Positions 5,926 through 26,580 of a stretch of 32,000 bases of DNA are shown here, piece after piece. The notes below the pieces were generated by a model, which worked only from the letters and a program-made list of their open reading frames with translations, was not told the origin of the DNA and did no database searches. Location of the stretch: contig NZ_CP142525.1 in NCBI RefSeq assembly GCF_051097895.1, positions 1,560,001-1,592,000 of the forward strand. The letters are read 5' to 3'. This DNA comes from Psychrobacter sp. HD31. GTDB taxonomy: Bacteria; Pseudomonadota; Gammaproteobacteria; Pseudomonadales; Moraxellaceae. Each line of letters opens with the position of its first letter. Position 1 is the first letter of the stretch. Position numbers and translations under genes: made by a program.

Positions 5926-7095
5926 TTAATTATTTTTTTCTATAACCCCTTGTTTCACATGAAACAATTTATAATCCTGCCAATAGTTTTTAACTAAAGG
6001 TAAAATGTCTTCTGTTAAACTTGTTAAAAACACTTGGCAATCTAACCCGCCAAGTGTGGTAAGCAAAACTTGAATGGCTTTTTCATCAAGCTCTGCAGTT
6101 ACATCATCCAAAAGAACAATAGGGACTGAACTTTCATAGTCTAATGTTTCATGTGAAACATCAATATTGGATTTTGATTTATCTTTTTGTAAAAGTGGCA
6201 ATTGTGATAATCTTAAAGCGGTTATTAATAACTTTTTTTCTCCTCGAGAAAGCACATTAGCTGCTTGATCTTTTACTTTATTTTTATTATCAATGTCAGA
6301 TTGCCAATGTACATGAATATCTGCACGGTGGCTCCCCACTCTGGTATAACCTTGTTGCAAATCTTGCAATAAGCGTTCTTCTAAAATTTTATCTAATGAT
6401 TGTGTAATATCAAAACCAGGTTGATAACTCACACTAATTTTTTTTGTGTAATGAGGTAACAGTTTTTCAATACTTTTTAAAAAGTACGGTTGCCATTCAT
6501 CAAAAACTTGTTGCCTATAATAATGAATTAACTCGGCATGCGCTGCTAGCCCTGCATCCCATGCTGCAATTTGTTGTTTTTGTAAATCAGTTAATATACG
6601 AGTTTGTTTTAAAAGACTATTACGCTGTTTAAGTAACCGTTGATAAGATAACCATTGCGCATAAAAATTTGGTTTCACATGAAACGCTAGCCAATCTAAT
6701 AATTGACGACGGCTCGCACTGCCTTGCTCCAAAACATCCATAGAAGATGGATCAATCAACAAGGTTGGCATATAACGTGTTAACTGGCTCTGCGTTTTTA
6801 CTGTATCACCATTAAAACGCAGCTGTGTAGTCGCATCTGTTTGTTTTTGAATCGCTAAGCGTATCTCATCATCAAAAACAGCAAACACTGTGGCAAAGTT
6901 ATTTTGATGCCGGATATAACGGCTTGGTTGATGGGTACGAAAGCTTTTACCACGAGATAATAAAAATATGGATTCGAGTAAAGAAGTTTTACCACTGCCA
7001 TTGTTGCCTATAATAATATTACAGCAACTGGTCGATAAATTAACTTGAGATAAATTGCGCAGATTTGTAATTTGTAAACGCTTAATCATGGACAT
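5926..7095 (-). CDS. recF: DNA replication/repair protein RecF
   Basis: Has Walker A GNNGSGKTS, the signature SRGEKKLL and Walker B LLDDVTAELD, and lies between dnaN and gyrB. The start is ambiguous: ATG at 7095 or 7089, while the ORF track begins at TTG 7104. Confidence 0.9.
   Translation of the reverse strand: MSMIKRLQITNLRNLSQVNLSTSCCNIIIGNNGSGKTSLLESIFLLSRGKSFRTHQPSRYIRHQNNFATVFAVFDDEIRLAIQKQTDATTQLRFNGDTVKTQSQLTRYMPTLLIDPSSMDVLEQGSASRRQLLDWLAFHVKPNFYAQWLSYQRLLKQRNSLLKQTRILTDLQKQQIAAWDAGLAAHAELIHYYRQQVFDEWQPYFLKSIEKLLPHYTKKISVSYQPGFDITQSLDKILEERLLQDLQQGYTRVGSHRADIHVHWQSDIDNKNKVKDQAANVLSRGEKKLLITALRLSQLPLLQKDKSKSNIDVSHETLDYESSVPIVLLDDVTAELDEKAIQVLLTTLGGLDCQVFLTSLTEDILPLVKNYWQDYKLFHVKQGVIEKNN
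5952..5965. repeat. 14-mer GTTTCACATGAAAC, copy 1
   Basis: Inside recF (codons FHVK). Palindrome extends to TTGTTTCACATGAAACAA. Confidence 0.95.
6146..6159. repeat. 14-mer, copy 2 (GTTTCATGTGAAAC on + strand)
   Basis: Inside recF (codons VSHET), in a segment absent from shorter RecF proteins. Palindrome extends to ATGTTTCATGTGAAACAT. Confidence 0.95.
6672..6685. repeat. 14-mer GTTTCACATGAAAC, copy 3
   Basis: Inside recF (codons FHVK). Confidence 0.95.
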
Positions 7096-7155
7096 AAACC
7101 CCAAAAAACACCATTAAAAAAACGCTTAAAAAATACAAAATGTGCATGTTTAAAA

Positions 7156-8331
7156 CTATATACGCATTGGCATAACAACATATTGATGTAGTTCATCACC
7201 ATGTTGATTTAGGAGGGTTGACGCATTAGCTTGGCTCATTTGTAATACCACATTACCCTCTAGCACATCTAACACATCTTGCAAATATTGCGCATTAAAA
7301 GATAACTCAATTGGATCGCCAGAATATTGAGATTGCAGTTTTTCAACCGCTTCATCTTGTTCTGCATTATTAGCACGCAATTCAATCATGCCTTCCGCAT
7401 CAAAATTTAAAATAACACCGCGAGATTTTTCATTACTTAAGATAGAAACTCGACGCAATACTTCTGTCATTTGTTCTTTATTAATTAGGGCTTGTTTATC
7501 ACTACTCGATGGCATAACACGGCGATAATCTGGGAACTTACCATCAATCAAACGAGCGGTAAAAGTAACTTGTAAGCTATCATCAATAACACCAGTGCTA
7601 TCAACATTGCCAAACGGCAATACTACTTGCAAAAATTCACGCCCAAATTTTAAGGTGATAGGGTTATCATTATCATTTAATAGTTTACCGAGTTCATTAA
7701 GTAAACGATCCAACTCAACAACTGCTTTACGTGGCAAAATCGCTTGCATGTTCAAATCATCATCTACCTCAATGGCACTTTTTGATAAAGCAAGACGATG
7801 ACCATCGGTCGCAACCGTGGTTAACAAACGTTGAGATACTTCAAACAACATGCCTGTTAAATAATAGCGTACATCTTGTATTGCCATAGCAAACTGCGTT
7901 TTGCTTATCATATCTGATAACTGAGCACGGTTAATTGTTAATGGCGTAATGTTCTCTGGCTCACCAAGTGTTGGGTAATCTGCTGATGGCAAAGTCCCTA
8001 AAGTGAACTTACTTTTATCACTTGTTATTAAGCAGCGGCTATTATCACTTGTGGTTAAATTAATTTGAGCATTACTGGGTAAAAGTTTACAAATATCACG
8101 CAATTTATCAGAAGGCAGTGTTATTGAGCCTTCTTCTAAACAAGCACCTTCTGGTAATGCCAATTTTGACATTAGTTCCACTTCTAAATCTGAAGCGGTC
8201 ATATACAAGTGAGTTTGAGTAAGCTTTAGCTTTATATTACCCAAAATTACCATGTTGTGGCGCTTATCTGCCGCTTTTGCAATCAGATTAATGGCTTTTA
8301 ACAATAACTCACGATTGATTGATAATTGCAT
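7156..8331 (-). CDS. dnaN: DNA polymerase III beta sliding clamp
   Basis: 391 aa. N-terminal MQLSINRELLLKAI and C-terminal YVVMPMRI are typical of beta clamps. Position is immediately downstream of dnaA. Confidence 0.93.
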   Translation of the reverse strand: MQLSINRELLLKAINLIAKAADKRHNMVILGNIKLKLTQTHLYMTASDLEVELMSKLALPEGACLEEGSITLPSDKLRDICKLLPSNAQINLTTSDNSRCLITSDKSKFTLGTLPSADYPTLGEPENITPLTINRAQLSDMISKTQFAMAIQDVRYYLTGMLFEVSQRLLTTVATDGHRLALSKSAIEVDDDLNMQAILPRKAVVELDRLLNELGKLLNDNDNPITLKFGREFLQVVLPFGNVDSTGVIDDSLQVTFTARLIDGKFPDYRRVMPSSSDKQALINKEQMTEVLRRVSILSNEKSRGVILNFDAEGMIELRANNAEQDEAVEKLQSQYSGDPIELSFNAQYLQDVLDVLEGNVVLQMSQANASTLLNQHGDELHQYVVMPMRI

Positions 8332-8427
8332 AGTTATACTCTTTCTAGGCTTTTTTATTTAATAAATAAATGCTAAAACATTAAACAAGCCTAGTATAAC
8401 CAACTTTGTATGTTTTAACAAAGGCTA

Positions 8428-9792
8428 TTAGCCAGCTTGTAGCATCATTGCCAGTGCTTTATATTCTTTATCTAAAATTAAGTCTTCAGCTCTTAATTGT
8501 TTGACTTTGTCACAAGCATGCATCACGGTAGAATGATCTCGACCACCAAATGATTGCCCTATTTCTGGATAGCTGTCACCCGTTAATTCTCTTGCTAATG
8601 CCATCGCAATTTGACGAGGACGGGCAATGCTGCGTGTGCGTTTTTTACCCATTAAATCTTTAACCGACACATCATAAAACTCTGCCACCACTTTACGGAT
8701 GTTATCCATATTTACAGACTGAAAACGCTGTACAATAATGTCTCTAAGCGCATATTGCACCATTTGTAAATCAATGGTTACACCCGTTAAACTTGCATTA
8801 GCTATCACTTGGTTAAGTGCACCTTCTAGCCTACGTACATTAGACACAACATTTTGTGCAATAAATAAAGCACAATCTTTGGGCAGCTCAATACCAGATA
8901 ACGATGCTTTTTTTTGTAAAATTTGTACACGGGTATCCAGCTCAGGTGGATCAATTGCAACAGACAAACCACCTGATAACCGTGAACGGAATCTTTCATC
9001 AAACTCATCTAACTGAGCTGGGTGTCTGTCTGAGGCTAAAATTATTTGTTTATCGCCGCTAGTAAAGTCTGCAAATAACGATAAAAATTCAGTAATTGTT
9101 TTTGTTTTACCTGCAAGCACATGAATATCATCAATAATTAACAAATCCACTTGCTTAATTTTCTTTTTAAATTCATCAATTTTCTTTTGGCGTAACGAAT
9201 TAACCATCTGATTAACAAACTTATCAGAAGTAAAATAATAAAAAGTACGATTGGATTTTAAATATCTATGGGCAACCGAGTGCATTAAATGCGTTTTACC
9301 TAAACCAGACGGTCCATAAATAAACAAAGGATTATGACGATTTTGAGGGTTTTTCTTTGTTAGTTCATAACAGGCTTTATAAGCTAAATTGTTAGATTTA
9401 CCAGTGACAAAGGTATCAAAAGTAAAATTTGGATCAATGATATTTAAAGCTTTTGATTTTTTATTACTTAAAACAACACTACTTTCTTGGCTCGTTGGTT
9501 GGTTAGAAACGCTATCAGAAACAGCCGTCGATACACGATCTTTTTGTATATCAATTTCAATATTAACAGCATCTATTTGATTAGCACTGTGCTTAATCGC
9601 TAATTGTGTAATCGTTTCTAAAAAGTTATCTGTAACGTAATTAACAAAAATATCATTAGGGGCTTTTACAATTAAAATATTGTTATCTACTTCTGCCGTT
9701 AAAGGGCGTAACCACATTGTGAAAATACTACCTTTAACTTGATACTCTAAATCATCTAAGCATTTTTTCCAAAGAGCGACCGCATCAACCAT
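8428..9792 (-). CDS. dnaA: chromosomal replication initiator DnaA
   Basis: 454 aa. Has AAA+ Walker A GPSGLGKTHL, Walker B LLIIDDIH and C-terminal DNA-binding region SYPEIGQSFGGRDHSTVMHA. Confidence 0.97.
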   Translation of the reverse strand: MVDAVALWKKCLDDLEYQVKGSIFTMWLRPLTAEVDNNILIVKAPNDIFVNYVTDNFLETITQLAIKHSANQIDAVNIEIDIQKDRVSTAVSDSVSNQPTSQESSVVLSNKKSKALNIIDPNFTFDTFVTGKSNNLAYKACYELTKKNPQNRHNPLFIYGPSGLGKTHLMHSVAHRYLKSNRTFYYFTSDKFVNQMVNSLRQKKIDEFKKKIKQVDLLIIDDIHVLAGKTKTITEFLSLFADFTSGDKQIILASDRHPAQLDEFDERFRSRLSGGLSVAIDPPELDTRVQILQKKASLSGIELPKDCALFIAQNVVSNVRRLEGALNQVIANASLTGVTIDLQMVQYALRDIIVQRFQSVNMDNIRKVVAEFYDVSVKDLMGKKRTRSIARPRQIAMALARELTGDSYPEIGQSFGGRDHSTVMHACDKVKQLRAEDLILDKEYKALAMMLQAG

Positions 9793-10450
<658 letters not shown>

Positions 10451-10474
10451 TATAATGATTAATTTAATCATTTG

Positions 10475-10506
10475 AAAGCGTCAAATTAAATTTGACGCTT
10501 TTTTTA
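10475..10506 (+). terminator. rho-independent terminator/attenuator after rpmH
   Basis: AAAGCGTCAAATT (10475-10487) pairs with AATTTGACGCTTT (10489-10501), followed by a T-run to 10505. Confidence 0.7.
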
Positions 10507-10586
10507 TGTTTAATTAATAAAAGTTTAATATTTAAAATTCATCAGCTAAAATATAGCAATTATTAATAAAAGGTTTTTAGATAGTA

Positions 10587-10949
10587 ATGACTCATAATGG
10601 CTATAGCTACCCTAAAACAGCAAGATTGTTAACTCCAAAACAGTTTAAAAATGTTTTTGACTCTCCAGATAAAAAAATACATCAACCACATTTAATGGCC
10701 TTTATTAAAAAAAATGAACTTAACAATGCCAGATTAGGGATGGCTATTACAAAAAAGAAAGTACCAACAGCAGTTGCTCGCAATCAGTTAAAAAGATTAA
10801 CGAGAGAAAACTTCAGAATGTTAAGTAGCGACTTAGGCACTGTTGATATTGTTTTTATTGTAAAAAAACCCATAAAAGATATTAGTAACAATGAGTTAAA
10901 AAAACAAATAAAGGTTATTTTTAACAAAATAATAAGCCATCAGGGTTGA
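10587..10949 (+). CDS. rnpA: ribonuclease P protein component
   Basis: 120 aa. Has the RNR motif region AVARNQLKRLTRENFR. Follows rpmH as in most bacteria. Confidence 0.9.
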   Translation: MTHNGYSYPKTARLLTPKQFKNVFDSPDKKIHQPHLMAFIKKNELNNARLGMAITKKKVPTAVARNQLKRLTRENFRMLSSDLGTVDIVFIVKKPIKDISNNELKKQIKVIFNKIISHQG

Positions 10950-10963
10950 TTGGTTATTTTTTA

Positions 10964-11326
10964 ATGAATAAAGAACTGACTCAGTCTAAATCTACGTTAT
11001 CTTCACGCTTGTTGAGTAAACTTATTAAAGGTTATCAGCAAGGTATTAGCCCATTAATGCCTGCGCGTTGTCGTTATTACCCTACTTGCTCTCAATATGG
11101 ATTACAAGCTTTGGCTTGGCATGGGTCGTTAAAAGGTGGTTGGTTATTAACCAAACGAGTTTGTAGTTGCCATCCTTTAGGTGGTCATGGTATTGATTTT
11201 GTGCCGTTACCACTTTATCGATTTAAATTTGAGTATGTTGATTTTAAAAATATAGATAGAAAACTGGTTTATAAAGATAAATTTGATTATACAAGTCAGT
11301 TAAATTTTTGGCTAAAATCTGCATAA
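10964..11326 (+). CDS. yidD: membrane protein insertion efficiency factor YidD
   Basis: Has the conserved YQQGISPLMPARCRYYPTCSQYGLQA and CHPLGGHGIDFVP. The ATG at 10964 is preferred over the TTG at 10946 used by the ORF track. A C-terminal ~35-aa extension is present relative to the usual ~85-aa proteins. Confidence 0.85.
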   Translation: MNKELTQSKSTLSSRLLSKLIKGYQQGISPLMPARCRYYPTCSQYGLQALAWHGSLKGGWLLTKRVCSCHPLGGHGIDFVPLPLYRFKFEYVDFKNIDRKLVYKDKFDYTSQLNFWLKSA

Positions 11327-11435
11327 ATGTGACATATATCATTATGTATATCAATTTACAACAAATTTTAGTAGAATATCACCCATTTTCTTTTAAAGAT
11401 TAATTCTTAATTTTTTAACCTTGTAGGATACTTTC

Positions 11436-13100
11436 ATGCAAAAGATATTACGAGCGTTGATTATTGTTGCTATGCTTATTACAACATGGTTGTTGGTCAT
11501 GGCGTGGCAAAAAGATTATTCTGGTGTAGACCAGAGTTCAACGCAAAATACAACGGTTACTACGACTGGTGACTTACCTTCAGTAAATAGTAACGCAGAT
11601 CTACCAGCTTCGAGTGTGCAACCAAAAGCTTCAGTTGCAGCATCGGTTGATAGTCAGTTAATTAATGTTAGTACAGATTTATACGATATTAAAATTAACC
11701 CTGTTGGTGGTGATGTTGTATTTGCCTCATTAAAAGATTATGACGCAAAATTAAATAGCAATAATCCATTTGTATTACTAGAAGAAAACAGTAATCGTGT
11801 TTATCTTGCTCAGTCTGGCTTGGTTGGTCAAAATGGTATTGACACAGCGCAAGGACGAGCAAAATATGACTATATTTCTAGTAACTATGCTATGGCTGAA
11901 GGGCAAGAGACCCTTTCCATACCATTAACTTATAGCAAAGATGGGGTAACGGTTACAAAAACATTCACCTTTACTCAAGGTAAATACCCAATTGAGGTTA
12001 GCTATAATATTAACAACAACTCTGCAAACACATGGCAGGGTCAAATGTTTGCTCAGTTAAAGCGTGATGATAGTAAAGATCCAGGTATGGCAGATAAAGG
12101 TGCACTAAGTATGGCAACCTTTTTAGGCGGTGCTTATGGCACACCTGATGACGATTATAGCAAACTTAAATTTAGCAAATTTAACGATGGCGAATTAAAT
12201 AATATATCAACAAAAGATGGTTGGGTTGCTATTATTCAACACTATTTTGTTGCCGCATGGACACCATCAGATAATGTTACTGCTAAATTATTTAGTAAAC
12301 AGACAGAAAATAACAATATTATTGGGTTTACTAGTGAGCCATTAACGGTAGCTGCCGGCACACAAAATACTTTTTCTGCCAAGTTGTATACAGGTCCAAA
12401 AGTTCAGGATAAGTTAGAAAACTTTGCTCCTGGCTTTGAAAAAACGGTTGATTATGGTTGGGCATGGCCGATTTCTAAGTTCTTATTTACAATTCTATCA
12501 GGCATTCATAGCTTTGTTGGCAATTGGGGTTGGGCAATTATTGCTTTAACATTGTTGGTTAAATTAGTGTTATTCCCAATTTCTCATAAGAGTTATATGT
12601 CTATGGCTAAAATGCGTGCAATTGCGCCTAAATTGCAAGCCATTAAAGACGAGCATGGCGACGATCGTATGGCTCAATCACAAGCAATGATGGCATTGTA
12701 CAAAGAAGAAAAAGTGAATCCAATGGCGGGTTGTTTGCCATTATTAGCGCAAATGCCAATCTTCTTAGGTTTGTATTATATGTTGGTAGAAAGTATTGAA
12801 CTTCGCCACGCACCTTGGATTGGTTGGATTCAAGATTTATCTTCAATGGATCCGTTATTTATTTTGCCAATATTTATGGGTATTTCAATGTTTGCACAAC
12901 AAATGTTAAATCCTCAACCGGCTGACCCAATGCAAGCAAAAGTAATGAAGTTTATGCCAATTATGTTTGCAGCTTTCATGCTTTTCTTCCCAGCTGGTTT
13001 GGTATTGTATTGGACGGTAAACAACTTATCTAGCATGGCGCATCAATACTATGTGAACAAAAAAGTTGAAAAAGCTTATAGCTCAACAACCGCCAGCTAA
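11436..13100 (+). CDS. yidC: membrane protein insertase YidC
   Basis: 554 aa with an N-terminal TM anchor, a large periplasmic domain and a C-terminal multi-TM core (WGWAIIALTLLVKLVLFPIS, GCLPLLAQMPIF, PAGLVLYWTVNN). Position is rnpA-yidD-yidC-mnmE. Confidence 0.95.
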   Translation: MQKILRALIIVAMLITTWLLVMAWQKDYSGVDQSSTQNTTVTTTGDLPSVNSNADLPASSVQPKASVAASVDSQLINVSTDLYDIKINPVGGDVVFASLKDYDAKLNSNNPFVLLEENSNRVYLAQSGLVGQNGIDTAQGRAKYDYISSNYAMAEGQETLSIPLTYSKDGVTVTKTFTFTQGKYPIEVSYNINNNSANTWQGQMFAQLKRDDSKDPGMADKGALSMATFLGGAYGTPDDDYSKLKFSKFNDGELNNISTKDGWVAIIQHYFVAAWTPSDNVTAKLFSKQTENNNIIGFTSEPLTVAAGTQNTFSAKLYTGPKVQDKLENFAPGFEKTVDYGWAWPISKFLFTILSGIHSFVGNWGWAIIALTLLVKLVLFPISHKSYMSMAKMRAIAPKLQAIKDEHGDDRMAQSQAMMALYKEEKVNPMAGCLPLLAQMPIFLGLYYMLVESIELRHAPWIGWIQDLSSMDPLFILPIFMGISMFAQQMLNPQPADPMQAKVMKFMPIMFAAFMLFFPAGLVLYWTVNNLSSMAHQYYVNKKVEKAYSSTTAS

Positions 13101-13121
13101 ATCAACCTGATTCTTTATAAT

Positions 13122-13157
13122 AAAAAACACCGTCTAATATTTAGTCGGTGTTTTTTT
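13122..13157 (+). terminator. rho-independent terminator after yidC
   Basis: AAAAAACACCGTCT ... AGTCGGTGTTTTTTT: an imperfect stem (CACCG/CGGTG core) followed by a 7-T run. Confidence 0.6.
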
Positions 13158-13205
13158 ATATGTCAAGGCATGTATAATATTCTTATATTTATTAGAGAAC
13201 AAAAA

Positions 13206-14597
13206 ATGATTCAAACTAACCGTTTACCAACCATAGCTGCAATTGCGACACCAATAGGTAGAGGTGGTGTTGGTATTATCCGTATTTCTGGGGCACTTGC
13301 TTACGATATTGCTTGTCGATTAACAAACAAAAAACAATTTACGGCTCGTAAATCGATTTTTTGCCGTTTTTATAATCAACAACAAAAAGTCATTGATGAA
13401 GGCATTGTTTTATATTTCCCTGCACCAAACTCTTTTACTGGTGAAGATGTCATAGAACTACAAGGGCATGGTGGCATGATTTTGCAAAATATGCTGTTGG
13501 CCAGAGTGTTTGAATTAGGTGCAAAACAAGCAACAGCGGGCGAGTTTTCATACCGTGCGTTTGAAAATGATAAATTAGATTTAGTACAAGCAGAAGCCAT
13601 TGCAGATGCGATTGATGCAACTAGCGAGGCAGCAGCAACCAGTGCAATGAGGTCTTTAACGGGTGAGTTTTCGACCAAAATTAATGGGTTGTTAGAACAA
13701 CTTATCCATTTACGATTGCATGTAGAAGCTGCTATTGACTTCCCTGATGAAGAAGATGTTGATTTCTTATCTGATGGTGTGATTGAGTCAAAACTAAATA
13801 ATACACGTGACGAGTTAACCAAAGTTTTAGCAACTGCAAAGCAAGGGCAGTTATTAAGAGATGGCATTAATGTGGTACTTGCTGGAAAACCTAATGCGGG
13901 TAAATCCAGTTTATTAAACCGCCTTGCAGGGCAAGAGCGAGCGATTGTTACAGAAGTTGCTGGTACCACACGTGATACGCTTGAAGAAACCATAGTACTA
14001 AATGGTTTGACCATGCATTTAACCGACACAGCAGGGCTGAGAGATACAGAAGATAGGGTAGAGCAAATAGGTATTGAAAGAGCTAAGGATGCCATAAGCA
14101 AGGCTGATATTTTGTTAATGGTATTTGATTTAACACAAGACATTAACCCAATTGAATTAGCAGAAGAATTATTTGGAAAAATTCCTAAAGCTGAAAAATT
14201 ATTAATGATAGGTAATAAACTTGATTTAATTGAAAATGGTGAGAGTGCTACTTATAAAAACAAAGCAAACTTTGGAAATGAAACTAACTATGATCAAGTA
14301 AACGTTTCATGTGAAACATCAACAGGTATTCATGAATTGATTTCAAGTTTATGTAAAAAAGTTGATTTTCACCCACCAGAGAATAGTTTAATTGCCCGTA
14401 CAAGGCACATAGATGCCCTAAAAAGGACCCAAAATCATTTAGATGATGCTTATGAGCAACTAACGGTTTTTAAAGCAGGAGAACTCGTAGCAGAAAGCTT
14501 ACGCCAAGCACAGCAAAGTTTGGGAGAAATAACAGGCGAATTTAGTGCTGATGATTTGTTGGGCAAAATATTTGGTAGTTTTTGTATAGGTAAATAG
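13206..14597 (+). CDS. mnmE: tRNA modification GTPase MnmE (TrmE)
   Basis: Has N-terminal IAAIATPIGRGGVGIIRISG, G-domain GKPNAGKSSLLN / DTAGLR / NKLD and the C-terminal FCIGK motif. The ATG at 13206 is preferred over the 12-codon upstream extension in the ORF track. Confidence 0.93.
   Translation: MIQTNRLPTIAAIATPIGRGGVGIIRISGALAYDIACRLTNKKQFTARKSIFCRFYNQQQKVIDEGIVLYFPAPNSFTGEDVIELQGHGGMILQNMLLARVFELGAKQATAGEFSYRAFENDKLDLVQAEAIADAIDATSEAAATSAMRSLTGEFSTKINGLLEQLIHLRLHVEAAIDFPDEEDVDFLSDGVIESKLNNTRDELTKVLATAKQGQLLRDGINVVLAGKPNAGKSSLLNRLAGQERAIVTEVAGTTRDTLEETIVLNGLTMHLTDTAGLRDTEDRVEQIGIERAKDAISKADILLMVFDLTQDINPIELAEELFGKIPKAEKLLMIGNKLDLIENGESATYKNKANFGNETNYDQVNVSCETSTGIHELISSLCKKVDFHPPENSLIARTRHIDALKRTQNHLDDAYEQLTVFKAGELVAESLRQAQQSLGEITGEFSADDLLGKIFGSFCIGK
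14304..14317. repeat. 14-mer, copy 4 (GTTTCATGTGAAAC)
   Basis: Inside mnmE (codons VSCET). Confidence 0.95.
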
Positions 14598-14652
14598 CCA
14601 TTTAAGCAACAAATAGATATTACAACTAACAATTAAATTAATAGGAAAGCTT

Positions 14653-15114: not shown

Positions 15115-15116
15115 TA

Positions 15117-16175
15117 ATGAATGACTTGTATTTAAATCATAATTCCACTGATATTTACTATATGACGCTTGCTATTAATCAAGCAAAAAAAGCCATTTAT
15201 ACAACACGGCCAAACCCTGCTGTAGGCTGTATCTTGGTAAAAGATAACATGATTATTGGAGAAGGGTTTACCTCGCCTGTCGGCGGTAATCATGCAGAAA
15301 TAAATGCTTTAAATCATGCTAAAAACAATCATCATCAGGTTAACGACTCGACGGCTTATGTTACGTTAGAACCATGTTCTCATTATGGTAAAACGCCCCC
15401 TTGTTCAAAAGCAATCATTGAAGCGGGCATAAAAAGAGTTGTCATTGCAGGGTTAGATCCAAACCCAAAAGTTGCAGGGCGTGGCGTAAAAATGTTGCAA
15501 GATGCTGGTGTAAATGTGACGACTGGCTTATTAAGTGATCAAGCAGAGCAATTAAATAAAGGTTTTTTAAAGGCAATGAGAATAGGCATGCCTTATGTAC
15601 GGTTAAAAATTGCTACGAGTTTAGATGGAAAAACAGCAATGGCATCGGGTGAGTCTAAATGGATAACTGGAGTAGAAGCACGAGAGGATGTACAAAAAAT
15701 AAGAGCACTGAGTGGTGCTATTATAACGGGTAGTCAAACAGTTATTGATGACAACCCCAACTTAAATGTGCGTTCAAACCAGTTGGGTATTGATGTAAAT
15801 GAAATACCACAACCTAAAATTGCAGTTTTGGATAGACGAAATAGATTATCTGACAAAACAGATTATAAAATTTGTAAGAATGAGAACACTATTTTTTGTC
15901 ATGATGATGATCTAAAACAATTATTAAGTGATTTAGTGACACAATATCAAATTTATGATGTTATGGTAGAAGCCGGATCAAAAGTAGTAGGTTCATTTAT
16001 AAAACAAGATTTAATTGATGAGTTAGTTGTCTATCAAGCGCCTTGTTTACTAGGGGCTGATGCCAGGACAATGGCTGATTTTAAAATAAATCATTTATCA
16101 GGTCAAAAAAGGTTTAAATTAGTTTCACATGAAACTATGGGAAATGATTTAAAATTAGTTTTTACTAAGCAATAA
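15117..16175 (+). CDS. ribD: bifunctional riboflavin biosynthesis protein RibD (deaminase/reductase)
   Basis: Has deaminase zinc motifs HAEINAL and PCSHYGKTPPC, plus a C-terminal reductase domain. Conserved nrdR-ribD pairing. Confidence 0.92.
   Translation: MNDLYLNHNSTDIYYMTLAINQAKKAIYTTRPNPAVGCILVKDNMIIGEGFTSPVGGNHAEINALNHAKNNHHQVNDSTAYVTLEPCSHYGKTPPCSKAIIEAGIKRVVIAGLDPNPKVAGRGVKMLQDAGVNVTTGLLSDQAEQLNKGFLKAMRIGMPYVRLKIATSLDGKTAMASGESKWITGVEAREDVQKIRALSGAIITGSQTVIDDNPNLNVRSNQLGIDVNEIPQPKIAVLDRRNRLSDKTDYKICKNENTIFCHDDDLKQLLSDLVTQYQIYDVMVEAGSKVVGSFIKQDLIDELVVYQAPCLLGADARTMADFKINHLSGQKRFKLVSHETMGNDLKLVFTKQ
16122..16135. repeat. 14-mer GTTTCACATGAAAC, copy 5
   Basis: Inside ribD (codons VSHET). 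Palindrome extends to TAGTTTCACATGAAACTA. Confidence 0.95.
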
Positions 16176-16795: not shown

Positions 16796-17053
16796 ATCGT
16801 TATCTCCTGAGTTGGTTATTAAATACAAGCGAACAATCATTTAATTTGCTAATCACCCAATGTGATAGTTATTTATTTAAATGAAAGAAGATGAAAAAAA
16901 AGAAAACATATAAATCATCTTGCTTGTTAACGATGAATACATAGTAACAGGATATTACCGAATGTATGTTCATTTTATACGATAAGTTTGTAATATACTG
17001 TTACATTTATTGCAGATAACTAAAAATTATTGCTAAAAAAAGCGATAAAGCAA

Positions 17054-17090
17054 TAAAAAGAGCTGTATTTATTAAATACAGCTCTTTTTT
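17054..17090 (-). terminator. rho-independent terminator after infC
   Basis: Perfect hairpin AAAAAGAGCTGTATTTA / TAAATACAGCTCTTTTT, 30 nt downstream of the infC stop, with T-runs on both strands. Confidence 0.8.
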
Positions 17091-17121
17091 AATCAATATA
17101 AATTTGATTGAGTCGCTAAAA

Positions 17122-17643: not shown

Positions 17644-17648
17644 GGGTA

Positions 17649-19583
17649 TTACTCCTCATCTGTTTTTAGATTGTATCGACCCTTCTGGGCGACGGCTTTT
17701 TGTACTAGCTCGATAAAGTCTTCTACTGACATAACACCTAGGTTTTCACCTTCTCGAGTACGTACATTGACGCTGCCAGATTCGACTTCTTTGTCCCCCA
17801 ATACTAACATGAAGGGGATACGTTCTAGAGTTCGCTCACGTATCTTAAATCCAATTTTCTCATTACGCAAGTCACTAAAGGCACGAATGCCTACATTTTT
17901 AAGTTTTTCTACGACGTCATTACAGGTGTTAGATTGTTTGTCTGTAATGTTCATTACCACAACTTGATTTGGTGATAACCAAGGTGGCATAAAGCCGGCA
18001 TAATGCTCAATAAGCATGCCAATAAAGCGTTCAAAGCTGCCTAATATGGCACGGTGTAGCATCAGTGGCGTTTCTCGCTCGCCGTCTTCATTAACAAATT
18101 CTGCATCAAGGCGTTCAGGCATATTAGGGTCAACTTGGATTGTACCGCACTGCCATTTTCTGCCTAAGCAATCTTTTAATGTAAATTCAATTTTAGGACC
18201 ATAAAATGCCCCTTCACCCGGTAAATATTCCCAATCAAGACCAGAGCTGTCTAGCGCATCTGATAAGGCTTTTTCTGCCAAATCCCAAGATGCTTCTGTA
18301 CCAACACGTTTTTCTGGGCGAGTCGATAACTTCATTTCGATGTTATCAAAGCCAAAGTCTTTATAAACATTTAGAGTAAGGGCAATAAAGTTTGCTACTT
18401 CTTCTTCTAATTGTTTACGAGTACAAAAAATATGACCATCATCTTGAGTAAAACCACGTACACGCATAATACCGTGTAGTGAGCCAGATGGCTCGTTACG
18501 GTGGCACGAACCAAACTCAGCCATACGTAGTGGTAAATCACGGTAAGATTTTAAACCCTGATTAAATACTTGTACATGGCATGGGCAGTTCATTGGTTTT
18601 ACGGCGTAGTCACGGCTTTCACTTGAGGTGGTAAACATGTTTTCGGCATAGTTACCCCAGTGACCAGACTTTTCCCACAAGCTGCGGTCTACAATTTGTG
18701 GTGTTTTCACTTCATCATAGCCATTATCTTGCTGTAGTTGACGCATGTATTGCTCAAGTACTTGCCATATTTGCCAACCATTTGGGTGCCAAAAAACCAT
18801 ACCTGGCGCTTGCTCTTGTAAGTGAAATAAGTTTAACGCTTTACCAATTTTACGGTGGTCACGTTTTTCGGCTTCTTCAATACGAGTAATGTAGGCTTTT
18901 AATTGTTTTTTATCTGCCCAAGCCGTGCCATAAATGCGCTGTAGTTGCTTATTGTTTGAGTCACCACGCCAGTAAGCACCGCTCATTTTAGTAAGCTTAA
19001 ATGCTTTTAAAAAGCGTGTATTTGGTACATGTGGACCACGGCACATGTCAATGTATTCTTGATGATAGTACAAGCCCATTTCAGTTTCATCAGGCATCTC
19101 TTCAATCAGTTTTAGCTTGTAGTCTTCATTACGTTCTTCAAATACTTTAATCACCTCATCACGTGGTGTCATTTTTTTGATAACGTCATAATTTTGGTTA
19201 ATTAGATCTTTCATACGAGCTTCTATTTTGCTCATATCCTCTTGAGTGAAGGGCTTTTTACTGTATATATCGTAATAAAAGCCATCTTCAATAACAGGAC
19301 CAATCACCATTTTTACATCAGGGTATAACTGTTTTACCGCGTGTCCCATTAAATGAGCACATGAGTGGCGAATAATTTCTAACCCTTCTTCATTTTTTGA
19401 GGTAATGATTTCTACTTTTGCATCTGTGGTAATCAGATCGCTTGCATCACGTAAAATGCCATCTACACGCCCAGCAATGGTGGCTTTTGCCAAACCAGGA
19501 CCAATGCTCTCGGCGATTTGCATCACAGTGGTTGCTGCGCTGAATTCTTTGATATTACCGTCAGGTAAAGTAATCGCTACCAT
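17649..19583 (-). CDS. thrS: threonine--tRNA ligase
   Basis: 644 aa with an N-terminal TGS domain, editing domain ([10 protein letters not shown]), class II core ([30 protein letters not shown]) and C-terminal anticodon-binding domain. thrS-infC linkage. Confidence 0.96.
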
Positions 19584-19807
19584 AATTTTTTCCTTCTTTT
19601 TGTCCGTTGATAGTGATGATTGTAACTCTCAATCATATAATCGCTAGACTATGTTTTAAGTTCATTGATTGTTGCCATACCCTTTAAATACTTTTAACTG
19701 GTAATAATTTGGCAAATTAAAATAAAGCTTTAATTATATCAAACCTTTGTAATAAAGACCAAGTAACTAACATTTTGCATACAAGGTTTGATAACATTTT
19801 AGTACAC

Positions 19808-19841
19808 AAAAAACCGCTTTGTCTGGCAAAGCGGTTTTTTG
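19808..19841 (-). terminator. rho-independent terminator after pnp
   Basis: AAAAAACCGCTTTG tctgg CAAAGCGGTTTTTT: a perfect GC-containing stem with U-runs on both strands, 25 nt downstream of the pnp stop. Confidence 0.8.
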
Positions 19842-19865
19842 GATATGTTTTAGCAAATTAAAAAA

Positions 19866-21962
19866 TTATTGCTCAACACCTTTCATAGTAAGTTTGATAC
19901 GACCACGGTTGTCAACGTCTTGTACCAATACTTTAATTTTTTGACCTTCACTTAAGTGGTCACTCACGTTTTCTACACGTTCTTCACTGATTTGTGAAAT
20001 ATGAACCAAGCCATCTGTACCCGGTAAAATAGTAACAAAAGCACCAAAATCAACAATACGTGCAACGGTACCTTCGTATACTTTACCCACTTCTGCTTCG
20101 GCAGTAATGGCTTCGATTTGAGCAATGGCAGCTTTGCTTGATGCTTTGTTTTCACCAAAAATGCGGATTGTGCCATTATCATCAATATCAATTACTGCGC
20201 CTGTTTCTTCAGTAAGCTGACGGATAGTTGCACCGCCTTTACCAATTACGTCACGAATTTTATCTGAATCAATGTTGATTACAGCATAGTTAGGTGCATG
20301 CGCGTTTATTTCTGTACGGCTTTCTGCAATAACTTCGTTCATGGCATTTAGGATGTGGATACGTCCTGCATGTGCTTGTTTAAGCGCTTGTTCCATGATG
20401 TCAGCAGTGATGCCTTCAATTTTGATATCCATTTGAAGTGCTGTGATACCGTCTTTAGAACCAGCAACTTTAAAGTCCATATCGCCTAAGTGATCTTCAT
20501 CACCTAAGATGTCAGATAAAACAGCAAAACGCTCATCTTCTTTAACTAAGCCCATTGCAATACCGGCAACTGGTGCTTTTAGTGGCACACCGGCATCCAT
20601 TAATGCAAGAGATGCACCACAAACAGAAGCCATTGATGAAGAACCATTTGATTCAGTAATATCTGATACTATGCGGATCACATAAGGGAAGCGATCACTA
20701 TTTGGCAGCATTGCTTGAACACCACGGCGGGCTAAGCGACCATGACCAATTTCACGGCGTTTAGGTGCGCCTTCGCGACCTGTTTCACCCACTGAATAAT
20801 GTGGGAAGTTATAATGCAACATGAAGTGATCTTGTTTTGTACCTGAAAGACTATCAATTAGGTTCACATCGCGTGAGTTACCTAATGTTGTGGTAACCAG
20901 TGCTTGGGTTTCACCACGGGTGAATAATGCAGAACCATGGGTGTATGGTAATACGCCAACTTGCACATCTAATGCACGTACGGTTTCTAAATCACGACCA
21001 TCAATACGTTTGCCATTTAATACAGCATCACGAACAGTGCGGTATTTTAACTCATCAAACAAACCTTTTACTTCGCTTGCTTTGTCGCTATAGTCTTCAG
21101 CTTCTGGGTCGCCTGCTAGTGCTTCTAAAACAGCCGTTTTAACTTCATCAAGTTTAGCGTAACGGGCTTGTTTGTCGGTAATGGTATAGGCTTCGGCAAC
21201 GGCTTCACCAAATTGAGTTTTTAAGGCACTTTCTAAGGCTTCATTAACCTGAGGGGCTTCAAAAACTTGCTTTTGCGGTGCAACGGCATCGGCTAATGCT
21301 TGGATGTTGTCAATTACCACTTGTTGTTGCTCGTGTCCGTATAAAACAGCGCCAAGCATTTGATCTTCTGATAGCTCTTTAGCTTCAGATTCAACCATTA
21401 AAACAGCACCTTTTGTGCCTGCGACAACAAGGTCTAAATCGCTTTCAGCCAATTGATCATGCGTTGGGTTTAATACATACTCACCATTAACAAAACCAAC
21501 ACGTGCCGCACCAATAGGACCATTAAAAGGCGCATCAGAAATTGATAGGGCAGCTGAGGCACCAATCATAGCAGCAATATCAGCATCTTGAGATTTGTCT
21601 GATGAGATAACCGTTGCAGTGATTTGAATCTCGTTTACATAACCTTCTGGGAATAATGGACGGATTGGACGATCGATAAGGCGGCTAGTTAAAGTTTCAA
21701 ACTCACTAGCACGACCTTCACGCTTGCCATAACCACCAGGGATTTTACCCGCTGCATACATTTTTTCTTGATAGTTTACCGTTAATGGGAAAAAGCTTTG
21801 ACCTTCGTTTGCTTCAGCTTTTGCGACAACAGCAACTAATACAGATACGCCACCCATGTGTACGATAACGGTATTAGCCTGACGAGCAATACGCCCAGTT
21901 TCTAAAACGACTTGTTGATTGCCGTATTGAAATTCTCGTGTAATGGTATTAAACATTGACAT
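19866..21962 (-). CDS. pnp: polyribonucleotide nucleotidyltransferase (PNPase)
   Basis: 698 aa with two RNase PH-like domains, KH ([15 protein letters not shown]) and S1 ([18 protein letters not shown]) domains. Downstream of rpsO. Confidence 0.96.
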
Positions 21963-21992
21963 TTATTGTTCCTAATATTTAAAAAATTATAA

Positions 21993-22006
21993 GTTTCATG
22001 TGAAAC
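21993..22006. repeat. 14-mer, copy 6 (GTTTCATGTGAAAC)
   Basis: Intergenic, 31 nt upstream of the pnp start codon, so within the pnp 5' leader. Confidence 0.95.
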
Positions 22007-22228
22007 AGCTGAATATTAATCATGTTATCAGCTTTATTTTTGTATATTTTGACTTAATATTTAGCCTCTAACGGTTATAGATTTTTGTTTTTTAAATAAA
22101 AACAAACCCACAAGCGTTAGAAGCCAGCCTAAAAATACACACTTCCATTTTACCTTTATTTAAGCATTTTTACTATTGATTAATAAATATTGCTGATAAA
22201 AGTATCTAACTAGATTAAGTTAAAATAC

Positions 22229-22259
22229 AAAAAACGGCGAGAATCCACATTCTCACCGT
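22229..22259 (-). terminator. rpsO terminator/attenuator
   Basis: Minus strand has ACGGTGAGAAT gtgg ATTCTCGCCGT followed by TTTTTTG. It begins ~22 nt after the rpsO stop. Confidence 0.7.
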
Positions 22260-22281
22260 TTTAAAAACTATTCGCTATATA

Positions 22282-22548
22282 TTAGCGACGTAAGCCTAGT
22301 TGACCAATTAGCGTTGAATAACGGTTAAGGTCTTTACCTTTTAGGTAGTCTAGTAGTTTACGACGTTGGTTAACCATACGGATTAGACCACGGCGGCTGT
22401 GATGATCAGCTTTGTGCGCTTTAAAGTGAGCCTGTAGGTCGTTAATACGAGCCGTTAATAGAGCTACTTGTACTTCTGGGCTACCAGTGTCGTTTTCGCC
22501 ACGTTGGTATTGAGCGATGATTTGTTCGCGATCTTGATTTGTTAGCAT
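22282..22548 (-). CDS. rpsO: 30S ribosomal protein S15
   Basis: [70 protein letters not shown]...GLRR. The AGGAGA RBS before the ATG at 22548 means the 5-codon ORF-track extension is rejected. Confidence 0.95.
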
Positions 22549-22740
22549 TTTAATCTCCTGCAATGCTGTGAGTGATGATTCACTCCATTTAAATTCAGGC
22601 TATCCCTGCATTACTAGAGGTAGCCTATGGTTTGTTTTTTCTAAATTTATCTGTGTTTAAAACTTTAAAAAAACACAGAAAAATTAAGAGGGCATATCTT
22701 AGCAAAAAATTAGCTAAATTGCTAATTAATCTGATATATC

Positions 22741-23355
22741 TTATAAAATTGATAAAATATTTCTAAAAGTTAGGCTTATTCGTCCATTTTTTACCATTTT
22801 AGTTTTGGTAATGGTATGTTGCCAGTGGTTTTGTGTTTGCCCGTGCATAACAATTAATTGACCGTTTGTTAGCATGATTTCGGCTTTGTTTTTAGTCTGG
22901 TTATGTTTAAAAACAAATTTGCGGGTTTCTCCTAACGATAAACTCGCAATAATAGGTTCAAAGCCAAGCTCTGGTTCATCATCTGCATGATAGCCCATGC
23001 CTTCTTTACCGGTTGGGTAATAATTAAGTAAGCAGGCGTTAAAAGTTGTTTGTATGCCTTTCTCTTTTAATTGCTTTTCTATGAGCTGTTTCACATGAAA
23101 CACGTCATTTATCCAAGGTATGCTTAGGCGATTATGCCCAGAATATCGGTAACTAACATTATCGCCCATCCATACAATTTGCCGTTTGGTAATGTGTGTT
23201 TTACCAAAAATAGTGACTATATCGGATTGCCAAGGAAGCTTGCTTAGCAAGGTTTGGTAAAGCTGGGTTGGGTTGTCTAGTACAACACCAAAATCATTAA
23301 CCATGCCATCGTAAGGTAATAGGTTATCTTGTGGATTTGATGGGAATAGATTCAT
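22741..23355 (-). CDS. AlkB-family Fe(II)/2-oxoglutarate-dependent dioxygenase (ABH2/3-like)
   Basis: Has GYHADDEPELG (HxD iron ligands), WQHTI (distal His) and RISLTFRNI (2OG-binding Arg). 204 aa. Confidence 0.8.
   Translation of the reverse strand: MNLFPSNPQDNLLPYDGMVNDFGVVLDNPTQLYQTLLSKLPWQSDIVTIFGKTHITKRQIVWMGDNVSYRYSGHNRLSIPWINDVFHVKQLIEKQLKEKGIQTTFNACLLNYYPTGKEGMGYHADDEPELGFEPIIASLSLGETRKFVFKHNQTKNKAEIMLTNGQLIVMHGQTQNHWQHTITKTKMVKNGRISLTFRNILSIL
23088..23101. repeat. 14-mer GTTTCACATGAAAC, copy 7
   Basis: Inside the AlkB-like gene (codons FHVK). Confidence 0.95.
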
Positions 23356-23374
23356 CTTTTCACTTTAAACATAA

Positions 23375-25237
23375 CTAGTCTTTACCTAAAAACCCACCAC
23401 TTTGGCGCTGCCATAGTTTGGCATATACGCCATCTAGTGCCAGTAGCTCGTCATGGCTACCTTGTTCAATTATCTTACCTTCTTCTATAACAACCAGCTT
23501 ATCTAAAGCGGCAATTGTCGATAACCTATGGGCAATTGCGATGACGGTTTTACCTGCCATCATATCATTTAAACTTTCGGTAATTGCGTGTTCTATTTCA
23601 CTGTCTAGGGCAGAAGTTGCCTCATCTAATAATAAAATAGGTGCATTTTTTAGCATAACTCTGGCAATGGCAATACGTTGGCGTTGCCCACCAGATAGCT
23701 TAACGCCGCGCTCACCAACTTTTGTATCTAAACCTGTGTTGCCTTTTTTATCATGTAAGCCTTGGATAAACTCCCAAGCATGAGCTTTTTTGGCAGCGGC
23801 AATAATTTCATCTTCTGTGGCATCTGGGCGACCATAGGCAATATTTTCTCGTACTGTACGATGTAGCAATGAGGTATCTTGTGTTACCATGCCAATTTGC
23901 AAACGCAGAGACTCTTGCGTAACTTCATCAACGGCTTGTCCATCTATTAAAATTTTGCCAGATTGCACATCATAAAAACGCAGTAACAAATTAACTAAAG
24001 TAGATTTGCCAGCACCAGAACGCCCAACAAGTCCCACTTTTTCACCAGGCTTTATTTGTAGGTTAAAATCTGTAAGTAGATGCTCTATCTTAAGCTTATC
24101 TAAGTTTTCATCTTTAACCTCATAGGCAAAGTTAACATTATTAAAGCTAATTTCACCTTTATTGACGGTAATTTCTTTAGCATTTGGTTTGTCGATGACT
24201 GTTTGAGGCGTGGATAAAGTACTAATGCCATCTTGCACGGTGCCGATGCTTTCAAAAAGTTGTGCTATTTGCCACATTATCCAATGGGTCATGCCATTCA
24301 TACGGATTGCCATGGCGGTTGCCGTTGCAATGGCACCTGCCGTTACAATGCTGGCATTCCATAGATACAAACTAATAGCGGCTGTACTGCCCACCAATAT
24401 AATGCTGATTAAGTGGGTCATTAAGCCTAAATGAGTTACCCAACGCATTTGCCCGTGTACGGTTGTAATAAATTGTTGCATTGCGTCTTTGGCGTATTTT
24501 AACTCTCGTCGAGAATGGCTAAATAGTTTAACGGTTGTGATATTGGCATAGGCATCGGTAATTCGCCCTGTCATTAGTGAGCGGGCATCGGCTTGTTTGC
24601 GAGAGGCATCGCGTAGTTTAGGGACAAAAAAGGCAATATTGGCAATTAATAAAAGTAGCCAAAGTATAAAAGGCAATAAAAGTAGCTTATCTAGGCTAAA
24701 CATGATGACACCAGTGGTTATAAAATAAATAAACACATAAGTGAGCATGTCGCATATGGTCATGATAACGGCACGAACAGCAAGCGCTGTTTGCATGACT
24801 TTGGCAGAAACCCTACCAGAAAACTCATTTTGATAAAACTGCATGGATTGTCCAAGCATTCTTCTATGAAAACGCCAACGCATCTGCATTGGGAATACGG
24901 CTTGTATTACTTGATAATGTACCAATGATTGTAAAATTACCACTAAAGGGCTTGCGAGCATAATCATTGCCATCAACTTAATTTTATCGCCTTTTTCTGC
25001 CCATAGCGTTTGCGGGGTATAATGGCTTAACCAATCAACCAAATCACCAATCCATGCAAACAATACGGCTTCATAAACGCCCATGACAGCCACTAAAAAA
25101 GTAAACAACAATAGCCAGCCGCGTAATCCGGCAGTACATGCCCATAAAAACTTAAGCAAACCTTTGCGTGGCAAGGGGATTTGATTAGTTGGATAAGGAT
25201 TTAAACGACTCTCAAAATACTGAAAAAGTGGCTTCAT
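23375..25237 (-). CDS. ABC exporter, fused permease/ATPase (type I exporter)
   Basis: 620 aa with an N-terminal ~6-TM domain, Walker A GRSGAGKST, signature LSGGQRQR and Walker B ILLLDEATSALD. Substrate unknown. Confidence 0.88.
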   Translation of the reverse strand: MKPLFQYFESRLNPYPTNQIPLPRKGLLKFLWACTAGLRGWLLLFTFLVAVMGVYEAVLFAWIGDLVDWLSHYTPQTLWAEKGDKIKLMAMIMLASPLVVILQSLVHYQVIQAVFPMQMRWRFHRRMLGQSMQFYQNEFSGRVSAKVMQTALAVRAVIMTICDMLTYVFIYFITTGVIMFSLDKLLLLPFILWLLLLIANIAFFVPKLRDASRKQADARSLMTGRITDAYANITTVKLFSHSRRELKYAKDAMQQFITTVHGQMRWVTHLGLMTHLISIILVGSTAAISLYLWNASIVTAGAIATATAMAIRMNGMTHWIMWQIAQLFESIGTVQDGISTLSTPQTVIDKPNAKEITVNKGEISFNNVNFAYEVKDENLDKLKIEHLLTDFNLQIKPGEKVGLVGRSGAGKSTLVNLLLRFYDVQSGKILIDGQAVDEVTQESLRLQIGMVTQDTSLLHRTVRENIAYGRPDATEDEIIAAAKKAHAWEFIQGLHDKKGNTGLDTKVGERGVKLSGGQRQRIAIARVMLKNAPILLLDEATSALDSEIEHAITESLNDMMAGKTVIAIAHRLSTIAALDKLVVIEEGKIIEQGSHDELLALDGVYAKLWQRQSGGFLGKD

Positions 25238-25542
25238 TCTTGTTCTACAGTTTTAAGTTTAATAATAATCATTCTAGCAAAAAATAAATCGCTAAATAAT
25301 GAAATAATGTAAGCGCAAAATTCAAGGTTATATGGATTTAATCGCTTTGTAAAATAAAGACGATATAATTTGTTGTTTGTATGTGTATTAACAAGCAAAA
25401 TGATATTTTAATAATTTGCTAATTTTGATAAAATATATAGCCATTCAGCAAATAAATATTTTTAAATATTTAACACGTTTAACTAACATTAACGAATTTT
25501 ATAATTTTAATTCGTTTTATTTACTCACAGGAGTTTTTACCG

Positions 25543-26433
25543 ATGAGTTTTTCAGAACAAACGCAACGTATTGCCAATGATGATGGATTCATCGCAGCCC
25601 TTGACCAAAGTGGTGGCAGCACACCAAAAGCACTAAAAATATATGGTGTGAATGAAGATGAATACACCAATGAAGAAGAAATGTTTACCAAAGTACACGA
25701 GATGCGCACACGCATTATGACGTGTGATGCTTTTACATCTGAGCGTGTTTTGGGTGCAATTTTGTTTGAAAACACCATGGACAGACAAGTAAACGGCAAA
25801 CCAACGGCAAACTACTTGTGGGAAGATAAAAACGTTGTGCCTTTTTTAAAGGTAGATAAAGGTTTGGCAGATGAAGAAAACGGCGTACAGCTAATGAAGC
25901 CAATGCCAGACTTAGAAGCCTTGTTAGATAAAGCCAAAGCATACCCTATTTTTGGTACTAAAATGCGCTCGGTTATCCATACAGCCAATGCAGATGCAAT
26001 TGAAGCCGTTGTTAGCCAGCAGTTTGATGTTGCAAAACGCATTTTGGCAAAAGGTTTTATGCCAATTATTGAGCCAGAAGTTAATATTGAAAGTGCAGAC
26101 AAAGCAGAGTCTGAAGCATTATTAAAAGCAAGCTTTTTAAAGCATCTTGATGAACTACCAGCAGATCAAAAAGTTATGTTTAAACTAACATTGCCAGAGG
26201 TTGCGGGCTTTTATCAAGAATTGATTGACCACCCTAAAGTATTAAAAGTGGTGGCGTTGTCTGGCGGTTATTCTCGTGATGAATCTTGCCAGCGTTTAAC
26301 AGATAACAAAGGTATTATTGCTAGCTTCTCTCGTGCATTTACCCAAGGTTTGGCAAAAGCACAAAGTGAAGACGAGTTTGCCAGCACAATGGATGCTACA
26401 ATTGATATGATTTATAGCGCTTCTAAATCTTAA
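25543..26433 (+). CDS. class I fructose-bisphosphate aldolase (296-aa Staphylococcus Fda type)
   Basis: The N-terminal GFIAALDQSGGSTPKALKIYGV block and length match the short bacterial class I aldolase family. An AGGAG RBS lies upstream. Confidence 0.8.
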   Translation: MSFSEQTQRIANDDGFIAALDQSGGSTPKALKIYGVNEDEYTNEEEMFTKVHEMRTRIMTCDAFTSERVLGAILFENTMDRQVNGKPTANYLWEDKNVVPFLKVDKGLADEENGVQLMKPMPDLEALLDKAKAYPIFGTKMRSVIHTANADAIEAVVSQQFDVAKRILAKGFMPIIEPEVNIESADKAESEALLKASFLKHLDELPADQKVMFKLTLPEVAGFYQELIDHPKVLKVVALSGGYSRDESCQRLTDNKGIIASFSRAFTQGLAKAQSEDEFASTMDATIDMIYSASKS

Positions 26434-26472
26434 TTTGGTTTATTACTAACTATAGACTTAGATTACAGCAAT

Positions 26473-26505
26473 AAAAAACGCACTCATATTAGAGTGCGTT
26501 TTTTA
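26473..26505 (+). terminator. rho-independent terminator after the aldolase gene
   Basis: AAAAAACGCACTC atatta GAGTGCGTTTTTT. Confidence 0.8.
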
Positions 26506-26566
26506 TTTGTATATAACATAGTTGTTTAAAAGTATTTTGTCATAAAATATTCTCTAATTGTAAGAA

Positions 26567-26580
26567 GTTTCACATGAAAC
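26567..26580. repeat. 14-mer GTTTCACATGAAAC, copy 8
   Basis: Intergenic between the convergent aldolase gene and thrC. It forms the core of a 30-bp near-perfect palindrome at 26559-26588. Confidence 0.95.

Follow-up and report, generated by a model that had tools for sequence, protein, structure and literature searches.

Candidate parS sites with an altered centre in the origin region of Psychrobacter sp. HD31

The window analysed here is a stretch of 32,000 nucleotides from Psychrobacter sp. HD31 (contig NZ_CP142525.1, positions 1,560,001 to 1,592,000), and the element in question is a 14-mer, GTTTCACATGAAAC, which is present in eight exact copies and is very probably a form of parS, the chromosomal centromere recognised by the partition protein ParB. 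The window is the chromosomal origin region of this bacterium: gyrB, recF, dnaN and dnaA lie on the minus strand and are followed on the plus strand by rpmH, rnpA, yidD, yidC, mnmE, nrdR and ribD. The spacer between dnaA and rpmH carries two perfect DnaA boxes, TTATCCACA, at 9881 and 10081 and two further boxes with one mismatch at 9906 and 10006; it has the lowest GC content of the window (28%) and is where the GC skew changes sign. All eight sites fall between -4 kb and +16.6 kb of this spacer, whilst the outer 11.4 kb of the window (both ends together) contains none. As the window lies on oriC, the high density of the 14-mer within it is a consequence of that position and is not evidence of its frequency across the genome. 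The features referred to throughout are as follows.

5952..5965, plus strand: parS-like site 1, in the C-terminus of recF and read as LFHVKQ; full 16-mer TGTTTCACATGAAACA at 5951-5966
6146..6159, minus strand: parS-like site 2, in recF at about amino acid 319 and read as VSHETL; full 16-mer TGTTTCATGTGAAACA
6672..6685, plus strand: parS-like site 3, GGTTTCACATGAAACG, in recF at about amino acid 143 and read as AFHVKP
9793..10450, no strand assigned: dnaA-rpmH intergenic region, likely oriC/dnaA promoter region and reference point for the cluster
14304..14317, minus strand: parS-like site 4, in mnmE and read as VSCETS
16122..16135, plus strand: parS-like site 5, AGTTTCACATGAAACT, in ribD and read as VSHETM
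21993..22006, minus strand: parS-like site 6, intergenic, lying after rpsO and 31 bp ahead of the pnp start codon
23088..23101, plus strand: parS-like site 7, in the gene for an AlkB-like 2-oxoglutarate-Fe(II) oxygenase and read as VFHVKQ; full 16-mer TGTTTCACATGAAACA
26567..26580, plus strand: parS-like site 8, intergenic between a convergent aldolase-like gene and thrC, outside a nearby terminator hairpin

Distribution of the 14-mer in the window

An earlier sequence-only reading of this DNA had drawn attention to the 14-mer as massively over-represented, listing eight copies, with the centre reading CA on the plus strand in five and TG in three; the coordinates, the orientations and the over-representation were all confirmed. 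The expected count is 0, and the word was absent from all 100 dinucleotide-preserving shuffles of the window. Relaxing the search to two mismatches or fewer yielded no additional loci in the window, and the pattern GTTTCANNTGAAAC likewise has eight occurrences, the centre being CA or TG every time. No other long k-mer is strongly over-represented, with the exception of the weaker AAAGTGGTGG. It had also been remarked that several copies are extended by complementary bases, and this was borne out by the presence of the full 16-mer TGTTTCACATGAAACA at three copies (5951, 6145 and 23087) and of complementary A...T flanks at one more. The 25-bp neighbourhoods of the eight copies are otherwise unrelated, with no conserved flanks, which rules out a larger repeat or a miniature inverted-repeat transposable element as the source of the 14-mer.

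Six of the copies are intragenic (three in recF and one each in mnmE, ribD and the AlkB-like oxygenase gene) and are read as FHVK, VSHET or VSCET, just as the sequence-only reading had it; its further point, that the third frame would introduce TGA and is unused, is true but trivial. The remaining two are intergenic. It had been proposed that the motif be checked for strand or replichore bias, and no polarity was found, the orientations being mixed on both sides of oriC; as the 14-mer is in addition too long for that class of element, a polar sequence of the KOPS (FtsK orienting polar sequence) or Chi type was rejected. A methylation switch at CATG was unsupported, the tetramer occurring in the window at 0.85 of expectation.

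Identity with parS and orthology of the sites

The canonical chromosomal ParB site, parS, is TGTTNCACGTGAAACA; it is multicopy, with typical copy numbers of 3-22, lies nearly always in the origin domain and is often intragenic (PMC7022226). All eight copies of the 14-mer match the parS core at 13 of 14 bases, and three match the full site at 15 of 16. The sole deviation in each copy is one central transition, which converts CACGTG to CACATG or CATGTG, so that the CA and TG centres represent a single transition on either strand of an otherwise perfect palindrome. The sequence-only reading did not recognise the motif as one that had been described; it overlooked both that a single base separates the sequence from canonical parS and that the window is the replication origin region. 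Its fallback, a genome-wide protein-binding or nucleoid-organising site, was right as to the kind of element, whereas the evidence points to an origin-local rather than a genome-wide distribution. We regard the motif as a new instance of a known element, its degenerate centre being a small genus-level twist. The 14-mer itself is printed in no paper in the literature searched, nor did that search turn up a description of a chromosomal parS from the Moraxellaceae.

The likeness to the chromosomal parS sites of Bacillus subtilis, Pseudomonas aeruginosa, Vibrio cholerae chromosome I and Caulobacter crescentus extends to the same GTTTCA/TGAAAC arms, the same 16-bp extent and the same arrangement as a multicopy, often intragenic cluster within ~20 kb of oriC (PMC7022226), and the positions within recF match those found in other gammaproteobacteria. 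The difference is that every HD31 copy bears the transition in the central CpG and is hence asymmetric: one of its half-sites is the perfect GTTTCAC, and the other, having T as its seventh base, is GTTTCAT. The half-site logo derived from chromatin immunoprecipitation sequencing of P. aeruginosa ParB, GtTcCAc, admits T in place of C at position 7 (PMC5961200), which is exactly the change from GTTTCAC to GTTTCAT seen in HD31. The ParB of that species also binds half-parS heptamers (GTTCCAC/GTTTCAC; PMC5961200), and each HD31 site retains one perfect GTTTCAC half. However, the HD31 sites are full inverted repeats in the origin region, whereas the heptamers number in the hundreds and are isolated and spread through the genome.

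A scan of species-representative genomes with a DnaA profile provided 80 gammaproteobacterial dnaA loci (L125-L204), among which neither Psychrobacter nor Moraxella was included. Sites with parS arms were present in 62 of these, and the 128 sites so recovered have the centre CG in 119 cases, CA/TG in eight and GG in one. Most are located 3.0-3.9 kb downstream from the start of dnaA, frequently in pairs spaced ~615-640 bp apart. When mapped on RecF, one member of the pair corresponds to amino acids ~140-175 and the other either to the C-terminus of the protein or to the opening codons of gyrB. Where both are in recF they read xFHV[K/E]x, the frame being different where the second falls in gyrB. 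The pair was found in Pseudomonas, Halomonas, Chromohalobacter, Legionella, Steroidobacter, Acinetobacter, Alkanindiges and a Moraxellaceae metagenome-assembled genome (MAG), and the window sites at 6672 and 5952 occupy exactly these two conserved positions. The site at 6672 has its orthologue in an xFHV[K/E]x parS at RecF amino acids 137-177 of Acinetobacter, Alkanindiges, Pseudomonas, Halomonas, Legionella and all the Psychrobacter loci; that at 5952 corresponds to a parS at the recF C-terminus or the gyrB 5' end, of the canonical form TGTTTCACGTG[A/G]AACA, in Chromohalobacter, Halomonas, a Moraxellaceae MAG, P. arenosus and others. A large part of the Gammaproteobacteria has parS at conserved positions in recF, where the putative centromere and the RecF peptide xFHV[K/E]x appear to be evolutionarily coupled.

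Within the genus, the origin loci of six other lineages were compared (L206, L214, L216, L207, L208 and L209); by DnaA, the relatives of HD31 comprise two sister MAGs at 92% identity and other Psychrobacter species at 63-74%. Loci spanning ~20 kb around dnaA contain 5-9 sites each (6-9 when expressed per 21 kb), and the shorter L216 contains three. Orthologous sites alternate between CG, CA/TG and TA centres with the arms unchanged. The mnmE site is present with a single-transition centre (Cys codon TGT) in all six of the Psychrobacter lineages that cover the gene (L001/L002, L206, L214, L207, L208 and L209).

Other sites have a narrower distribution. The one at 6146 is common only to the closest lineages, with a CATATG centre in L206 and TGTTTCACATGAAACA at the matching recF position of L216, and on this comparison it looks like a lineage-specific gain. 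Similarly, the ribD site at 16122 is confined to the closest lineages, being kept in L001 and L206 and having a CATATG centre in the sister MAG L214. The sites at 23088 and 26567 are shared with L214, the former in identical form and the latter as AGTTTCATGTGAAACT in the same thrC/aldolase intergenic space. At the position of site 6 that MAG has AGTTTCATCTAAAACA, with three changes, so the site was either recently gained in HD31 or lost in L214.

Three observations may be added concerning individual loci. In both sister MAGs mnmE contains an additional site, AGTTTCATATGAAACA (L206 5519, L214 17020), which encodes VSYETN and has two changes in its centre; it lies 57 bp from the conserved one, and at this position the window lacks any site, even with two core mismatches allowed. 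In L216 (a 74% DnaA relative with a GC content of 31.8%) gyrB no longer follows recF, and the C-terminal recF site at 4506 is TGTTTCAAGTGGAACA, with an AG centre unlike the transitions seen elsewhere. The gap between the aldolase-like gene and thrC contains a strong intrinsic-terminator-like hairpin, AAAAAACGCACTC...GAGTGCGTTTTTT, at 26480-26510, ~60 bp from site 8.

Conserved arms and altered centre

A codon-aware comparison of recF, mnmE, ribD and the AlkB-like gene with those of the six relatives found the arms to be the same throughout, 60 of 60 third-codon positions within them being identical, as against only 41-76% identity at third positions elsewhere in the same genes. The probability of such conservation arising by chance ranges from 3e-4 to 4e-2 per lineage. 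The disparity argues that something reads the arms as DNA.

The central CpG is the sole part of the site that varies within Psychrobacter. A CG centre is kept in ~23% of Psychrobacter origin sites, compared with 93% in the other gammaproteobacteria, and in none of those in HD31. The group to which HD31 belongs has the lowest GC content (32-36%) and no CG centres, whilst species of higher GC retain some. Coding context also appears in the pattern: at the three FHVK-frame sites of the window the transition takes the silent form (CAC to CAT, both His) and not the one that would exchange Val for Met, and in the VSxET frame the central change replaces R with H or C, and in the sister MAGs further with Y (CATATG).

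From these patterns we infer that the altered centre may be the product of AT-biased decay at a weakly read central position, limited by coding constraint and perhaps also by a need for one perfect half-site. Avoidance of a restriction target was considered as a cause and rejected because the window shows no shortage of CACGTG (8 copies where 5.3 would be expected; ACGT is mildly low, at 0.71). It is also conceivable, though we think it rather unlikely, that the ParB of Psychrobacter is less strict, or differs, in what it requires of the central parS dinucleotide, such that HD31 would segregate its chromosome entirely on asymmetric CACATG sites. Were ParB to have co-evolved with the centre in this way, the lineage would offer a natural experiment in the drift of centromere specificity, and would show whether one perfect half-site suffices for loading of the cytidine triphosphate (CTP)-dependent clamp. 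More generally, Psychrobacter seems to tolerate central CpG transitions unusually well, a tendency that is complete in the reduced, low-GC HD31 lineage, and the degenerate centre would offer an inexpensive natural means of finding out which positions of parS are really read by ParB.

Alternative readings, related systems and other sequence features

We have high confidence in reading the eight 14-mers as origin-proximal parS sites of Psychrobacter sp. HD31, and what is described in the ParABS literature suggests how they would act. ParB dimers are predicted to recognise the inverted GTTTCA/TGAAAC arms, to load as CTP-dependent clamps and to spread over the surrounding ~20-50 kb; the resulting partition complex would be used by ParA, and probably also by a condensin, to organise and segregate the origins once they have been replicated. 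AT-biased mutation of the central CpG in a low-GC (36%) lineage would have produced CACATG and CATGTG, a change which is synonymous (His) at the FHVK-frame sites and which ParB appears to tolerate.

Several points should nevertheless be set against this assignment. Neither the window nor any of the Psychrobacter loci retrieved was found to contain a parA or parB gene. Among the other gammaproteobacterial loci, 19 encode ParB at a distance of 8-9 kb upstream of dnaA. Among gammaproteobacteria, ParABS has been reported absent only from the Enterobacteriaceae and Pasteurellaceae (PMC7022226), so parAB would be expected in HD31, its presence there being assumed from this general distribution of the system. 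Binding of ParB at a CACATG centre in Psychrobacter is likewise presumed, by analogy, and the restriction of the sites to the origin in HD31 would follow from the DNA of its relatives together with the site-free ends of the window. It is also slightly odd that all eight HD31 copies have a single transition, with none canonical and none doubly changed, although the ratio of single to double transitions (8:0 in HD31 and 7:4 in the sister MAGs) reveals no clear difference by a rough estimate.

The lead pursued in the sequence-only reading was that of a DNA-uptake sequence, that is, a motif enriched throughout the genome by preferential uptake during competence. The uptake signal sequences (USS) of the Pasteurellaceae and the DNA uptake sequences (DUS) of the Neisseriaceae are lineage-specific, occur about once per kb genome-wide, are accompanied by numerous one-mismatch variants and frequently form pairs in terminators. 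The HD31 motif resembles them in being a short, exact and highly over-represented word that is found within genes and tolerated there in open frames only, and Psychrobacter is said, after Juni and Heym, to be naturally transformable, which would also count in favour of uptake; the literature searched describes no uptake sequence from Psychrobacter. However, neither the uniform density, the one-mismatch tail nor the terminator pairing typical of USS and DUS was seen for the HD31 motif: the window has no halo of one-mismatch variants, its outer 11.4 kb is empty and the copies are not embedded in terminator hairpins. Nor is the word lineage-specific, being parS minus one base and thus pan-bacterial, and its sites are positionally orthologous to canonical parS, including in families without known uptake bias. 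Two samples of non-origin DNA from relatives of HD31, the nusA-infB-rpsO-pnp region of P. phenylpyruvicus (L213, 22.1 kb) and the second contig of the sister MAG GCA_002754915.1 (L215, 12.8 kb), contain no sites in 34.9 kb, even at 2-3 core mismatches, whereas the density around the origin (39 sites in 127.5 kb, or 0.31 per kb) predicts 10.7 (P ~2e-5). The identity with parS, the orthology of the sites, the missing halo and the empty non-origin DNA of relatives together make an uptake function extremely improbable, and there is no case for following the motif up as a new uptake signal. The main value of the present analysis lies in this correction, by which a striking and seemingly unknown 14-mer becomes, in all probability, the standard bacterial centromere in a window that lies on oriC.

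The same evidence bears on two other explanations. The sites might bind some other sequence-specific protein that has no relation to ParB, such as a transcription factor or a nucleoid-associated protein, and resemble parS by chance; ParB binding is a prediction here and the accessible DNA yielded no parB gene, which leaves room for such a protein, but the match at 13 of 14 positions, the location at the origin and the orthology with canonical sites would then all be coincidence, and to have six of eight sites in coding DNA is unusual for transcription-factor operators, so that we give this idea hardly any credence. Alternatively, the sites could be decaying relics in a reduced (2.17 Mb), low-GC lineage that has lost or is losing ParABS, with a drift from CG through CA to TA marking sites which are no longer read. 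The lack of any canonical centre in HD31 or the sister MAGs, the doubly changed CATATG centres of the latter and, again, the failure to find parB would all fit with decay. Relics would not, however, be expected to keep their arms at all 60 synonymous third positions against a background of 41-76%, nor would a lineage losing the system be expected to acquire the sites that have apparently been gained (6146, 16122, 21993, 23088 and 26567). Arm conservation and apparent gains together indicate continuing selection by a reader protein, and we consider loss of function very unlikely. The assignment to parS thus remains the one which we prefer.

A scan of a viral collection with the bare 14-mer gave at least 120 matches, which were single chance matches apart from one contig with three copies (L038, IMGVR_UViG_3300045988_095234) among the matches listed. 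This contig belongs to a phi29-like podovirus, having genes for the connector, gp9, capsid, gp16, a protein-primed PolB, gp4 and a single-stranded DNA-binding protein. Within 12 kb it carries six parS-type 16-mers (1649, 3266, 5952, 7120, 9804 and 11333), three with the canonical CACGTG and three with CACATG or CATGTG, the latter having the form TGTTTCA(CA/TG)TGAAACA as in HD31. It is known that phi29 carries functional parS sites for Spo0J and exploits the Spo0J of its host (PMC2731898); phi29 itself has four copies of TGTTTCACGTGGAACA (four strong sites), fewer than the six of L038. The number of sites suggests that the L038 phage may make heavy use of host ParB/Spo0J, and the CACATG variant occurs here in another setting where parS function is expected. 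However, the phi29 family consists of Bacillus phages for which the association concerns spore entrapment, and its bearing on HD31 is circumstantial.

The window has some further features of its own. The 10-mer AAAGTGGTGG is present in five copies against 0.07 expected (8685, 23394 and 31758 on the minus strand, 25607 and 26245 on the plus strand), mostly extended to AAAGTGGTGGC, with unrelated flanks and in mixed orientation relative to oriC; at least the copy in dnaA is read as K-V-V-A codons, and the word is rare in related loci (0-1 copy each). A repeat of ~26 nt, AAAG[C/T]GGTGGCGATGGCTTTTATTAT, is located at ~30100 and 31757. Finally, GGCC is nearly absent from the window (6 observed against 69 expected under a Markov model), GATC is found 39 times against 89 expected, and CCGG and CGCG are also strongly under-represented; the depletion of GGCC and GATC suggests that the lineage may have been subject to restriction pressure of the HaeIII-like and MboI/DpnII-like types.

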